DNA of 64,000 nucleotides. It comes from an uncultured delta proteobacterium (GTDB lineage Bacteria; Myxococcota_A; Polyangia; Fen-1088). Position 1 is the first letter of the stretch, and each line of letters starts with the position of its first letter. The DNA lies in assembly GCA_963737265.1 (NCBI GenBank), contig CAVTRY010000021.1:128001-192000 (forward strand). The letters run 5' to 3'. The position numbers were made by a program, and so were the translations under genes. The notes beneath the pieces were generated by a model, which saw only the letters and a program-made list of their open reading frames with translations, did no database searches and was not told the DNA's origin. Shown one piece after another: positions 7,249-11,410 of the stretch.

Positions 7249-8307
7249 ATGCGGACTAAACACGCCCGTTTCAGACTGGTGCTGCTCGGCCTCGCCCTGT
7301 CGCTCGGCTGCGCTACCGAGCCGCCCATCCCATCCCCGACCGTCGCCGAATTGCCCGCGGAAAACACACGCCCCGCGACGGCGGCGAGCGCGCCGACGAC
7401 GGTGCACGCGCGCGACAATGGCGATGCTTTTAGCGTGAACGGCGCGGACGGGCTGGTGAGCCTGTGCCAGTCGCTGCGGGACGAAACCTCGGTGAGCTTT
7501 TCTGGCAACGCCGTCGAGCAAGCACGCGCCGCCGATGCGCATGCGCGCCAGCGCGAAGAAGCACTTGCCGGCCGCTACGTGGCTGTCATCCCCGCCAGCG
7601 GATTCGCCTTTCGCACGTATGACCTCGGCGAGCGCAGATTGGTGCTCGATACCCATCGCACGCTGGTCTTGGGTGATGGTGCGGAGTTGTTCGTTTCCGG
7701 CGGAGATTCCGCGCCCGGTTTCGCCTTGGGCCCCGACCTCGCCGATCGGATTCTAATTCAGCGCGCCGCCGACAAACTTTCCCTTCGCGTGATATTTCGG
7801 CCCGCCGGATCGGAGCTGCGCAGGGACGCGTGCCTGTGGCTCGGCGGCGGTCGAGTGGTCAAGATGGAAATCGACCTGCTGGCCGCCGCGTTGGTCGACC
7901 TCGACGGCGCGGTACTCGCGCGCGGGGACACCGGCGATTACGCCGATTCGGCACTCGCCACTCCGGTCCGATCGCCCAAGGTAACCGTCCGCAAGCCGCG
8001 CGCCGCGGATGGTAGAGAACTTTCCACGAGCGCCGCCGAGCCGCTAGCCGCTCTGGCCGAACAGGCGCAGCCTTGCTATGCGCGCGAGCTCGTCGCCCGG
8101 CCCGCCCTGCGCGGCACGCTGGTGCTGTCGATCCGGATCGGCGTTGGCGGACATGTTGAATCCCCTCACGTCGAGATGACATCGCTGGGAGATCCCGCGC
8201 TGGCAAACTGCGTGGCCGAGAGCGCCGCCAAGGTCAAGCTCGTCGGCGTCGGCACTGGCCAGCGCTTCAGCGTGCCCCTGCAGTTCGGATCGGCCGACGA
8301 ACGCTAG
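7249..8307 (+). CDS. Lipoprotein with C-terminal AgmX/PglI (TonB-like) domain
   Basis: Lipobox LSLGC; CYARELVARPALRGTLVL...LANCV...FSVPLQF. Confidence 0.75.
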   Translation: MRTKHARFRLVLLGLALSLGCATEPPIPSPTVAELPAENTRPATAASAPTTVHARDNGDAFSVNGADGLVSLCQSLRDETSVSFSGNAVEQARAADAHARQREEALAGRYVAVIPASGFAFRTYDLGERRLVLDTHRTLVLGDGAELFVSGGDSAPGFALGPDLADRILIQRAADKLSLRVIFRPAGSELRRDACLWLGGGRVVKMEIDLLAAALVDLDGAVLARGDTGDYADSALATPVRSPKVTVRKPRAADGRELSTSAAEPLAALAEQAQPCYARELVARPALRGTLVLSIRIGVGGHVESPHVEMTSLGDPALANCVAESAAKVKLVGVGTGQRFSVPLQFGSADER

Positions 8308-8464
8308 CTCACACGTTGAACTTGAAGGCAGCGCCGAACGCCGCGAAACACAAGGTCTCTCCGTCGACGGATGACTTGCAAAGTGGCCGCGTGCCCCCAG
8401 ACGTACCCCCAAATCTTGACGATGGGGGCTGGTGGACGCCGGTCGCGGTCTTGGGCTGCGCCGC

Positions 8465-8722
8465 TTACCTGTACACCTCTCGCCGGTGGCCGATCTTGAC
8501 CACCAGGACCACCAGGCGGCCGTCCTCGATGGTGTACAGCACGCGGTAGTCGCCCACGCGGATGCGCCAAGCATTGGCTTCGCCTTGCAGCTTGGTGACA
8601 CCCGCCGGCCGCGGATTCTCCGCGAGAGCCTCGATCCTGGCCACCACGCGACGCTGGACGGGCTTATCCAGCGCGCCTAGATCGCGCTCCGCACCCGGGG
8701 AAAGCAGAACGGAATAGCGCAC
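8465..8722 (-). CDS. relE: Type II toxin, RelE/StbE family
   Basis: 85 aa; NPRPAGVTKLQG..WRIRVGDYRVLYTI..VVKIGHRREVYR. Confidence 0.92.
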   Translation of the reverse strand: MRYSVLLSPGAERDLGALDKPVQRRVVARIEALAENPRPAGVTKLQGEANAWRIRVGDYRVLYTIEDGRLVVLVVKIGHRREVYR

Positions 8723-8725
8723 GAG

Positions 8726-8986
8726 CTACAGACCGAGGCGCTTCTTGACCTTGGCCAAGGGGATCGGCTTCTCGCCTTTGGCCTTCATCTCGGCCAGAGC
8801 CTCGCGCGCATCATCGGCATCGATTCGATCTTCCATGGCTTCGAGCAAGGCTAGATCCTCCGCCGGCACGATGGCGGCCAAGGTGTGGCCGTAGCGGGTC
8901 AGCGCGACGCGCTCCTTGGCGTAGGATGCCCGGTTCACCACATCGGAGAACCGCTTGCGCGCCACGGCAGTGGAAACCTTCGTCAT
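8726..8986 (-). CDS. Type II antitoxin, Phd/YefM family
   Basis: MTKVSTAVARKRFSDVVNRASYAKERVALTRYG..AAIVP; immediately upstream of the toxin. Confidence 0.9.
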   Translation of the reverse strand: MTKVSTAVARKRFSDVVNRASYAKERVALTRYGHTLAAIVPAEDLALLEAMEDRIDADDAREALAEMKAKGEKPIPLAKVKKRLGL

Positions 8987-8992
8987 GTCTAT

Positions 8993-9009
8993 GTTGTACA
9001 CCATGAACA
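8993..9009 (-). promoter_or_regulatory. TA promoter/operator: TGTTCA-N3-TGTACA repeats overlapping a TACAAC -10 box
   Basis: Minus strand TGTTCAtggTGTACAACatagacATG; TGTACA cores are typical of YefM-family operators. Confidence 0.5.
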
Positions 9010-9070
9010 GGATAACGTCGATGTCTTCGACGCCCACATGATGCCCCTGCCGACCTGAGGAGACAGCAGC

Positions 9071-9214
9071 TCAAGCACGAATAGATCGAAGGGGCGCCAG
9101 TTCGTGGGCCAGTTCTTTCGGGCTTTCTTGGAAGGCGTCTACGCCGAAATCCGCCAGCTGAGACCGCGTGGTGGCCAGGGTGTGATCCAGGCTTTTCTCC
9201 AGTCGATCCGTCAT
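9071..9214 (-). CDS. Small hypothetical protein (47 aa), possibly a gene remnant
   Basis: ATG at 9214 preceded by GAGGA; MTDRLEKSLDHTLATTRSQLADFG... Confidence 0.3.
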   Translation of the reverse strand: MTDRLEKSLDHTLATTRSQLADFGVDAFQESPKELAHELAPLRSIRA

Positions 9215-9266
9215 CCTTCGCGTTCCTCAGTCTATGACCTCATAAAAGAGCGTGGCCGTCTCGTAG

Positions 9267-9846
9267 GGGTGCTTCCCTGAAATGGGGGCTGTGGCTTCAC
9301 CTCGCCCCGCGCAGGTGGGATCGGAGGGAAAAACAGGGAGGAACGGAGGACCAGAGGAATCACGGGTTGGGTTGACGAGGAGGCGGAGACCCTCGCGAAG
9401 TACGGGGACGTGGAAATTGACGAGCAGGCCCACCGGCAGTCGTAGGAGCTTGGGATAGGTAATGACCTGTGCCAAGTGGGACAGGAAGCAACTGCTCTAC
9501 CGTCTTGACTTCGACGACCAAACGGCCTTCCACCATGAGGTCGAGGCGATAGCCGCAGTCGAGGTCAATGCCTTTGTACTGCAGAGGAATCGCGACCTGA
9601 CGTTGCGTGCGAAATCCACGCAGGCCTAGCTCGCGCGCCAGGCAGTGCTCGTAGGCCGACTCAAGCAGCCCGGGACCGAGGTGACGGTGGACTTCGATGC
9701 AGGCGGCGATAATTTGCCCAGTAAAGTCATCCTGTCTCTGTTTCTCCGTTCCTCGCTGTTCCATATCTGCGTTTTCGGCGGCACTCCGCCAGAAGTTGCT
9801 ACCTCACCGAGCCCCCGGCTGGGGCCCCCGTTTCAGGGAAGCACCC
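9267..9846. mobile_element. Non-autonomous transposable cassette (580 bp) with 23-bp TIRs and 9-bp TSD, carrying GxxExxY
   Basis: GGGTGCTTCCCTGAAATGGGGGC (9267-9289) is inverted to 9824-9846 with 1 mismatch; GTCTCGTAG direct repeat at 9258-9266 and 9847-9855. Confidence 0.85.
9360..9764 (-). pseudogene. GxxExxY (PD-(D/E)XK nuclease family) gene, frameshifted
   Basis: HLGPGLLESAYE, GYRLDLMVE, VVEVK; extra C near 9479, after which the HLAQVITYxKL..GLLVNF continuation is in another frame. Confidence 0.85.
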
Positions 9847-9932
9847 GTCTCGTAGTGCAGTCTTGCAACGGCCTTATCGGCCTATTATCGTATCGCCGGC
9901 TGCTGGCAAGACCTATTCCACTGGACTTCCCG

Positions 9933-11037
9933 TCACACGTTGAACTTGAAGTGAATCACGTCGCCGTCGCGCACGACGTATTCCTTGCCTTCTAGCGCGA
10001 GCTTGGCGTTCTGGCGGCAGGCGGCTTCGGAGCGTAGCCGGATCAGGTCTTCCCACCAGATGACTTCGGCTTTGATGAAGCCACGTTCGAAATCGGTGTG
10101 GATGACGCCGGCGGCTTGCGGGGCCTTCGCTCCGCGGCGGACGGTCCAGGCTCGGCACTCGTCTTCGCCGGCGGTGAGAAAGGTGATGAGATCGAGGACG
10201 GCGTAGGCGGTGCGGGCGACGGCGTGCAATCCGGGCTCTTTGAGGCCAAGACTTTCCAAAAACGCCGGGCGATCCGCGGCGTCGAGTCCGGAAATTTCGG
10301 CTTCGGCGGCGGCGCAGATGGCGACCAGAAGCGCGCCCTCTTTCTTCGCGTGGGCGCGCAAAGCTCTGACAGCGGGATCGCTGTCCACGGCCGCCAACTG
10401 CTTTTCGGCGACGTTGGCCACGTAAAAGACTTTCTTGTGCGTGAGCAGGAACAGCTCGCGCATGAGCTCGTTCTCTTCGTCGGAAAGTCCTTGCGCGCGC
10501 ACGGGTGCGCCCTCGGCCAGTGCCTTCTGCACTTTCAGGCAAACCTCGTAGCGGGCCTTTTCTTCCTTGGACGCCCCGCCCTTCATGGCCGCCTTGGCTC
10601 TGTCGATGCGCTTCTCGACGGTTTCGAGAATCCTTGAGGCACAGCTCGGTGTCGACGGTCAGGACGTCCGACACCGGATCGATGCGGCCATCGACGTGCA
10701 CGATGTTGTCGTCTTCAAAGCAGCGCACGACGTGGGCGATGGCGTCGACTTCGCGAATCGTGGCCAGAAACTGATTGCCAAGGCCCTCGCCCTTCGAGGC
10801 GCCGCGCACGAGGCCGGCTATGTCGACGAAGTTGACCGTCGCGGCGACGGTCGACTTGGGATGGTAGAGCGCAACCAAGGCGTCGAGGCGTGGGTCAGGG
10901 ACCTGCACCACGCCGACGTTGGGTTCGATGGTGCAGAACGGATAGTTCGCCACGGCCGCACCTGCCGCCGAGAGCGCATTAAAAAGCGTCGACTTGCCCA
11001 CGTTGGGCAAGCCGACGATACCGCATGAAATGGCCAT
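9933..11037 (-). CDS. ychF: Redox-regulated ATPase YchF (one +1 frameshift near 10630, likely sequencing error)
   Basis: [44 protein letters not shown]; removing one base gives 367 aa. Confidence 0.93.
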
Positions 11038-11080
11038 AGAATCGCACGGCGCCCGCGCAAAGCGGGCGGCCTGGGCAGGG

Positions 11081-11410
11081 CTAGATCTTGCCCGCCAGGT
11101 TGAAGGCGATGAGCAAGCCGTAGATGACGAGCGACTCGATGAGCGCCAGGGCGACGATCATCGGGACGAAGATCTTGCCCGAGGCTTGCGGGTTGCGCGC
11201 GATGCCGTCGAGAGCGGACGCGGCGGCGCGGCCTTGACCCAAACCGCCACCCAGGGCGGCGAGCCCGATAGCGAGTGCGGCGCCGATGCCGATGAGGCCC
11301 TTGGAATTGTCGGCGGCGGGGGCGGCACCCTGGGCGAAGGCAGCGGCGCTCGAAAGAGCCGTGACGACAAAGGCGGCCATAGGAATGAACAACTTGGCTA
11401 CTCGGCGCAT
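11081..11410 (-). CDS. atpE: F0F1 ATP synthase subunit c with N-terminal extension
   Basis: [21 protein letters not shown]. Confidence 0.95.

Follow-up and report, generated by a model that had tools for sequence, protein, structure and literature searches.

The 64,000-nucleotide stretch analysed here (the window), from contig CAVTRY010000021.1 of an uncultured delta proteobacterium, carries between a Phd/ParE pair and ychF a 580-bp element enclosed by terminal inverted repeats (TIRs), with a gene of the GxxExxY family inside. We conclude, with high confidence, that this element is a non-autonomous transposon, or mobile insertion cassette (MIC), which derives from an insertion sequence (IS) of the ISKra4 family, would be moved by a transposase supplied in trans, and has for cargo an older module in which the open reading frame (ORF) is placed between two inverted-repeat arms. 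We can point to no earlier MIC from the ISKra4 family, nor to one with a GxxExxY passenger. The element provides a clean and datable case of a passenger-carrying non-autonomous transposon from a little-studied family, for which the parent IS family was found, and it indicates that within a single lineage a gene family can expand to about 40 copies, starting from 1-9.

The features of the element are collected in Table 1. A repeat search of the window found the two TIR arms, of 23 nt and 96% complementary (22/23), together with CCGTCTCGTAG, a sequence directly repeated at 9256-9266 and 9845-9855. The right TIR and the right copy of this direct repeat overlap by two bases (CC, the last two of the TIR and the first two of the repeat), and the target-site duplication (TSD) was taken as the 9-bp GTCTCGTAG because other copies show 9-bp duplications. 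A 23-nt inverted repeat with at most one mismatch, over 400 spacings, is expected about 2.5×10−5 times per 64-kb window; given this expectation, and the same ends found 73 times in the genome, the element is not a product of chance. The original prediction, made from the letters of the sequence alone, had described exactly these repeats (580 bp, 23-bp TIRs with one mismatch, a perfect 9-bp TSD) and had given a GxxExxY gene as the only cargo. PF13366/PDDEXK_3 is indeed the sole family matched inside the element, but the gene is not intact in the window copy: the profile is divided between two frames, which we attribute to a frameshift caused by one surplus G, relative to the consensus, in the run at 9478-9480. 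Contigs from soil metagenomes lack the extra base at 9478, but they are collapsed over many copies. The inner arm on the 3′ side is made of 8-nt purine-rich units, on the complementary reading of the ORF.

Table 1. Features of the cassette and its borders in the window
Feature	Position	Strand	Evidence or remark
Frame with GxxExxY C-terminal part, running out through the left TIR into the flank	9227..9475	-	PF13366 profile 87-113
Left TSD copy GTCTCGTAG, 9 bp	9258..9266	none	repeat search
Predicted mobile insertion cassette, whole, 580 bp; one of 35 paired copies	9267..9846	minus (ORF strand)	
Left TIR GGGTGCTTCCCTGAAATGGGGGC, downstream of the ORF	9267..9289	+	with ~31 more bases, matches ISKra4-family IS end
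Inner inverted-repeat arm, 3′ side of the ORF	9332..9356	+	25 nt, 88%
GxxExxY / PD-(D/E)XK ORF, N-terminal part to the frameshift; start ATG 9764-9762	9360..9764	-	PF13366 E 5.1e-27, profile 2-83/117
GGG run, one base more than consensus GG; frameshift site	9478..9480	none	2 other copies share the extra base
Inner inverted-repeat arm, 5′ side, encoding ORF residues 2-10	9736..9760	+	25 nt, 88%
Right TIR (GGGTGCTTCCCTGAAACGGGGGC read inwards)	9824..9846	-	matches TIR motif of metagenome ISKra4-family ISs
Right TSD copy GTCTCGTAG	9847..9855	none	repeat search

The source assembly (6.55 Mb in 25 contigs, labelled G000, with the window at G000:C21:128001-192000) was searched for the TIR with up to 3 mismatches allowed. 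The 73 sites obtained form 35 pairs and 3 solo ends; these solo ends and one further fragment make 4 truncated copies beside the 35 paired ones. Thirty-one pairs are 564-580 bp long, and the others measure 681, 776, 2016 and 2018 bp. The duplications were all different, with a perfect 9 bp at 31/35 pairs and 10 bp at one (C21:116013); two of the remaining pairs showed a 7/9 match and one showed none. Insertion sites share a weak dyad, CAAG (−10 to −7) and CTTG (+15 to +18), around the duplicated 9 bp, in a tally that omits the 4 of 35 pairs failing the script's perfect-9-bp test, C21:116013 among them. In an alignment, two of the 31 short copies equalled the consensus and most were 0-3 substitutions away, while a subfamily of four copies (564-569 bp) stood at 20-25 substitutions. 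This low divergence looks like a burst, judged recent because most copies lie within 0-3 bases of the consensus. In four soil-metagenome runs, which may be the assembly's own source and are thus not independent, the word depth of the element was about 59-81 against 2.6-4 in its flanks, and contigs stopped exactly at 9267 and 9846 to continue into the flanks of other copies. The ORF is uninterrupted in 17/35 copies, that at G000:C18:127139-127717 among them, and broken in the 18 others, the ends of which are still intact. Selection on the cargo within G000 is not evident because of these 18 broken ORFs; many of the breaks are single-base indels in short runs, and could be assembly errors.

No transposase is present in the 564-580-bp copies, nor did a profile scan detect a second ORF with a family in them. 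Two sources of related ends were found. One is a resident IS of 2120 bp (G000:C20:66979-69098, hereafter the C20 IS), flanked by the 9-bp duplication GGAAAGCGG, whose 466-aa protein matches NF033572, 'ISKra4 family transposase', with 256.9 bits (cut-off 205). Each of its ends agrees with the cassette TIR at 19/23 positions, its own two ends being alike at 18/23. The other came from a scan of a metagenome collection for the TIR motif, which returned 11 contigs. Four of them have TIR pairs 1999-2148 bp apart that enclose an ISKra4-family transposase gene, present as an intact 463-aa ORF in three and split in two in the fourth; the three contigs with an intact gene also carry a family-less ORF of 142-155 aa, and a fifth contig has a partial ISKra4-family transposase gene. 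Both metagenome transposases scanned exceeded the NF033572 cut-off of 205 (241.7 and 242.4 bits), and identity to the C20 transposase was 73-75% (74% for one aligned pair). The TIRs of these metagenome ISs match the two-variant TIR motif of the cassette and, in contig L176, the IS end matches the left end of the cassette over 55 nt at 92.7%. A GxxExxY gene was found in 0/11 of the contigs.

According to the available part of PMC3942029, ISKra4 (p-MULT 4) and IS256 both belong to the p-MULT (prokaryotic Mutator-like) superfamily, whose members have inverted repeats (IRs) of 18-39 bp, the terminal C of which is conserved, along with direct repeats (DRs) of 8 or 9 bp; four ISKra4 elements carrying extra genes are described there. 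With its GGG...CCC ends, 23-bp IR and 9-bp DR, the cassette falls within these p-MULT limits. The original prediction had taken the element for a MIC, to be checked by looking for further TIR copies at different TSDs and for a matching IS. The MIC reading is supported by the IS-family TIRs, TSDs, passenger ORF and lack of a transposase, and both checks were positive, through the 35 pairs and 3 solo ends (32/35 pairs with different 9-10-bp duplications) and through the ISKra4-family ISs with motif-matching TIRs in metagenome contigs together with the relative in G000 (19/23 TIR, 9-bp TSD). Its suggestion of IS256 or ISL3 came close, as IS256 shares the p-MULT superfamily with ISKra4 (PMC3942029, available part), but the family found is ISKra4.

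The cassette therefore corresponds to IS ends between which the transposase region is replaced by the GxxExxY module, that is, to a MIC. We propose that the GxxExxY module once lay within an ISKra4-family IS, the transposase region of which would then have been lost; the cassette keeps the 23-bp TIRs of the IS and about 30 more bases at one end. An ISKra4-family DDE transposase would bind the 23-bp ends and insert the cassette via staggered cuts 9 bp apart. It could be provided in trans by the resident 2120-bp IS or, alternatively, by a closer, identical-ended IS of the kind found in metagenomes, missing from the assembly.

A number of observations weigh against this proposal. Transposition is inferred from structure, and none was observed. 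The C20 IS is single-copy in G000 and differs from the cassette TIR at 4/23 positions, an IS with TIRs identical to those of the cassette is absent from this assembly, and a C20-type transposase was not found in five relatives. L173 and L178, the two complete metagenome ISs with readable flanks, show no clean duplication. As mentioned, 18/35 copies have a broken ORF. Searches for empty sites were negative too. For the window copy, none was recognisable in 12 congeners with ychF orthologues (query window 7900-11100), since the congeners share no conserved DNA in the interval from the Phd/ParE pair to ychF, and this outcome neither supports nor refutes mobility. For the copy on contig C18, none was found in 12 congeners, the left flank not being conserved. 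Finally, a 26-nt stretch of the left flank had 0 matches in the metagenome collection, and contigs of the four soil-metagenome runs contained no joint across the element.

A second p-MULT-like IS, of 1783 bp, is present in G000 as 10-11 near-identical copies (the G000:C22:80702-81343 region and 9-10 other places), with a TIR beginning GGGTGGGTTGCACGGG and a 9-bp duplication. This IS might drive the cassette in place of an ISKra4-family one like C20 or L176. No related IS in the genome is more abundant, which makes expression of its transposase likely; the 1783-bp IS also begins with GGGTG and duplicates 9 bp. These first 5 bases are however all that its TIR shares with that of the cassette, and over 215 residues the identity between its transposase and the ISKra4-family one of C20 is only about 31%, whereas the motif-matching ISs, one with the 55-nt shared end, encode ISKra4-family transposases 73-75% identical to that of C20. 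We consider a role of the 1783-bp IS as driver very unlikely.

We next consider the cargo. The product of an intact copy matches TIGR04256, 'GxxExxY protein', with 141.8 bits (cut-off 35) and PF13366 with 140 bits (cut-off 22); in intact cassette copies the ORF reads through the TIR. The whole module, about 475 bp, comprises the start codon, a 25-nt arm, the PD-(D/E)XK domain with D/E-x-K intact, and the complementary arm. Six residues (G32, E35, Y38, D75, E85 and K87) are invariant in 61 sequences. The AF2 model of the protein (pLDDT 94.8) has a PD-(D/E)XK restriction-endonuclease-like fold. BpuSI came top with VIA-align (Z 7.8, rmsd 2.8, 94 aligned) and Cas4 SSO0001 best with Foldseek (E 4e-3), but no specific structural relative stands out, the matches being generic PD-(D/E)XK proteins (BpuSI, SwaI, Cas4, Hjc); a sequence search of the PDB gave no match. 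Values of dN/dS between the cassette ORF and TIR-less modules of sister species ranged from 0.12 to 0.36, which by this measure indicates that the GxxExxY module is under purifying selection. A scan of 9100-10000 for the consensus only revealed no sigma-70-like promoter. Neither the mobility, nor the flanking repeats, nor the function of GxxExxY / PDDEXK_3 genes is described in the literature searched, subscription journals and TIGRFAM/Pfam family descriptions being outside the search.

The TIR motif was then counted in 89 genomes of the order. Apart from the 73 matches in G000, two were found in G018, both solo ends with nothing beside them, and one in G009, 188 nt from a contig end; the other 86 genomes had none, and a control motif gave 0 matches in the same 89 genomes. 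On these counts the burst is lineage-specific. TIGR04256 was matched in 29/201 sampled genomes of the phylum, with 1-9 matches per genome elsewhere against 21 scored of 55 candidates in G000, where every GxxExxY copy except one sits in a cassette; by protein, the nearest public loci are in metagenome-assembled genomes of uncultured Myxococcales and Deltaproteobacteria. It had been proposed that such cassettes help explain the scattered, multi-copy distribution of GxxExxY genes. This holds in the present genome only: the TIR is absent from 86/88 other genomes of the order, and the other genomes of the phylum have their 1-9 matches without it, the inner repeat travelling instead.

Relatives carry the module in other settings. 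In the sister species G005 and G009, the inner part of the cassette (consensus about 41-47 to 514-523) is found at 81-91% identity, in other contexts and without the outer TIRs, and has not amplified there. G003 and G004 have many miniature inverted-repeat transposable elements (MITEs) of 307-327 bp (L008, L009, L015-L023), with a different TIR, CCCTTTCAAGGTGTT..., possibly preceded by GGCAG. All of these share one internal-deletion derivative of the GxxExxY module, and their flanks suggest a shorter repeat of about 7 bp, of the form CTnnnAG, as read from six pairs only. A third kind of terminal repeat (...CAATGCCGGTCAC...) contains both inner arms in ORF-less elements of G009, G005 and G010, with about 130-190 bp between the outer repeats; at least 8 copies were read (L014, L119-L123, L126, L128, L129), often beside CTAG. 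In G000, 70/80 matches to the inner-arm motif fall within paired copies and 8 more within truncated copies. We could not find an earlier description of one hairpin-bounded module nested in three different TIR shells in one genus.

A quite different possibility is that the cassette is autonomous, the GxxExxY nuclease itself cutting at the 23-bp TIRs and moving the element without any DDE transposase. The element has no ORF other than GxxExxY, which is under purifying selection and has invariant catalytic residues, and the gene and its flanking arms co-evolve across phyla (see below). We nevertheless give this possibility very little credence. The module without TIRs did not amplify in sister species, 18/35 copies have a broken ORF yet intact ends, and motif-matching TIRs bound ISKra4 ISs that have a DDE transposase, with GxxExxY in 0/11 of the metagenome contigs. 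We also know of no PD-(D/E)XK enzyme that performs strand transfer alone, which we count against autonomy. Lastly, a 9-bp duplication and a 23-bp IR with C as its last base are in keeping with p-MULT elements (PMC3942029, available part).

To return to the cassette as an ISKra4-derived MIC, its inner arms belong to a bracket that is found well beyond it. Among 80 GxxExxY loci from many phyla, 78 were scanned (2 were omitted for too little flank or no forward match). The scan compared two 260-nt segments per locus, one around the domain start and the other around the domain end, and kept the best ungapped inverted repeat formed by the two. A score of 16 or more was obtained in 45/78 loci with their own left and right flanks, as compared to 0/78 when the right flank was reversed, 2/78 when it was complemented, and 8/234 when left flanks were paired with the right flanks of other loci. 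The median length of the arms is 31 nt and the median span 480 nt; the left arm begins at or beside the start codon, and the right arm lies after the domain. By eye, a purine-rich unit of 8-9 nt can be made out in many arms, in two to four imperfect copies, periodicity being flagged in 11/45 arms only by a crude self-shift test (at least 60% self-identity, shifts 5-12). The sequence of the arms varies from locus to locus, so complementarity is what is kept. Judged by these scores, the bracket is a hallmark of the GxxExxY family. We could not find a previous description of such a family-wide bracket.

The one GxxExxY gene of G000 outside a cassette (C22:198320-198793) is bracketed as well; its arms, 33 nt long, differ in sequence from those of the cassette and score 27 (null 8). 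It lies between recA and a gene that we take to be comM/yifB-like, and an ORF-deleted mini-version of the module is found just downstream of recA (C22:199895-200076, L132). Across 13 genomes of the genus, the module at this site was present in 7, lacking in 2, reduced to 3′ remnants in 2 and to a footprint in 1, with no match in 1; the footprint, in G001, is a short remnant at arm bases that resembles the product of a deletion. The module at recA thus behaves as an old resident, to judge from arms that change between species and are complementary within each. Altogether, the TIR-less modules of sister species, the purifying selection, the same architecture across phyla and the likeness to the intervening sequences (IVSs) discussed below indicate that the module is older than the cassette.

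The same scan was positive for genes of another, unrelated family. Loci of PF05635, the four-helix-bundle '23S rRNA intervening sequence protein', were bracketed in 11/14 cases from four genomes (L155-L168; nulls 0 and 1 of 14); these genes are outside rRNA, and their arms are of the same periodic-repeat kind. G000 has no four-helix-bundle gene. The bracket in 45/78 GxxExxY and 11/14 PF05635 loci links GxxExxY genes to IVS-like elements. The available part of PMC4990558 describes the 23S rRNA IVS of Coxiella as 428-444 nt long, with terminal inverted repeats that form a 28-bp stem, three tandem heptamers ahead of the start codon of a small ORF, and excision by RNase III, and calls the origin of IVSs unclear.

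It may then be that the inner repeat acts at the RNA level only, the arms pairing in the transcript and RNase III cutting the stem, with the nuclease unrelated to the arms. The median span of 480 nt, the arms of about 30 nt made of tandem units before the start and the single ORF of 120-130 aa would fit the Coxiella IVS (PMC4990558, available part), PF05635 genes outside rRNA are bracketed in 11/14 loci, and both stems are present in the predicted fold of the cassette's sense strand (z = −3.7). On the other hand, G.U is not favoured over A.C among the sense-strand mismatches of the arms, which gives no sign of selection on RNA pairing (44 vs 47 within arms, 114 vs 116 with 6-nt extensions). 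In 20 GxxExxY loci searched, none had an rRNA match, and the Rfam matches of 20 loci, at E up to 0.1, were limited to two tRNAs, with nothing on the arms. The ORF-less, arm-only derivatives dispersed in sister genomes and the footprint-like deletion at arm bases in G001 point to events at the DNA level. An action on RNA alone is in our opinion possible, though rather unlikely.

Alternatively, the GxxExxY nuclease may act on the hairpin, cruciform or stem formed by its own arms, an idea that we advance only tentatively. More broadly, and with similar reserve, there might be a class of hairpin-bracketed cassettes, so far unrecognised and spanning many phyla, of which GxxExxY genes would form the protein part. 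This class would be sister to the ORF-bearing rRNA IVSs, and the nuclease would maintain, copy or excise the cassette by acting on the arms that co-evolve with it. The cassettes would spread within other mobile DNA, as in the three TIR shells seen in one genus, of which the ISKra4-derived one gives the 39-copy burst here. The arms, as a DNA cruciform or as an RNA stem, are concrete substrates for a biochemical test of the protein. If this broader reading were true, it would supply a first testable function for a widespread family, and a candidate source of the ORF-bearing IVSs.

MIC231, derived from IS231 in the Bacillus cereus group, is an example of a MIC. Others are the MICs of Tn3-like elements in Xanthomonas and the qnrS2 MIC of Aeromonas, as far as the available parts of the sources go. 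Like them, the cassette has IS-type TIRs, a target duplication, no transposase, one passenger ORF and a presumed mobilisation in trans. It differs from them by its ISKra4-family, Mutator-like parent, by a MITE-like number of copies (35+4), and by a passenger, a PD-(D/E)XK nuclease, that brings its own inner inverted repeat. With ISKra4-family ISs it shares the 23-bp IR with terminal G...C, the 9-bp DR, the TIR motif and, for one of them, the 55-nt end; having neither a transposase nor the 142-aa orf2, it is a derivative and not a member IS, since an IS would have its transposase. MITEs resemble it in size (564-580 bp), high copy number, TIRs with TSD and absence of a transposase, but the cassette cannot be classed as a MITE, given its conserved ORF, which is under purifying selection and intact in 17/35 copies. 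True ORF-less derivatives do occur in sister species, both as the 307-327-bp elements with another TIR and as the arm-only elements of about 130-190 bp.

The inner module calls for its own comparison. REPIN-RAYT systems also have a small enzyme gene between inverted repeats, and ORF-less hairpin derivatives dispersed in related genomes; here, however, the enzyme is of the PD-(D/E)XK type and not an IS200-like tyrosine transposase, and the arms differ by locus instead of following one genome-wide REP sequence. The module is built like the ORF-bearing 23S rRNA IVSs of Coxiella and Leptospira (PMC4990558, available part), with about 430-520 nt, arms of about 25-35 nt made of tandem purine-rich units beside the start codon, and a single small ORF. 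The module is nevertheless not an rRNA IVS, because it lies outside rRNA (0/20 loci within an rRNA gene), and its ORF is GxxExxY and not the four-helix-bundle S23p.

Several further observations concern the surroundings of the cassettes and insertions into them. In the window, genes for a ParE toxin (8465-8722, minus strand) and a Phd/YefM antitoxin (8726-9037, minus strand) adjoin the cassette, on the strand of ychF and of the cassette ORF. On the other side ychF is apparently frameshifted: the ORF at 9913-11037 (minus strand) has the YchF N-terminus followed by an Arg-rich, out-of-frame tail, and the YchF C-terminal domain (PF06071) is in another frame, in the ORF at 9933-10586. This frameshift may be an assembly indel, and bears on the trust to be placed in single-base indels of the cassette copies.

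The 2-kb length of two copies is due to an unrelated IS4-like IS that has inserted into the cassette, with 11-bp duplications (G000:C20:14118-16133, L002, and G000:C23:162554-164571, L003). The 438-aa DDE_Tnp_1 protein of this IS scores 97.6 bits with NF033592, under the cut-off of 115, and the IS has matches at about 10 places in the genome. The two insertions are at mirror-image positions just inside opposite TIRs (consensus 24-34 and 545-555), which suggests a target preference. Smaller secondary insertions are seen in the copy at G000:C13:547670-548445, with 187 bp between the matched parts and a 12-bp duplication, and in that at G000:C20:7328-8008, with about 116 bp. At G000:C17:62354-63520 two cassette copies are in direct tandem, with one 9-bp CCGTGGCGC between them and CCGTGGCGC on both outer sides. 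Finally, a stretch of about 120 bp to the left of the C18 copy (L005:807-928; G000:C18 ~126444-126565) has six counterparts at 96-99% identity in the congener G010, neighbouring genes in the same comparison being 70-85% identical; this stretch may be a shared small mobile element or an RNA gene.

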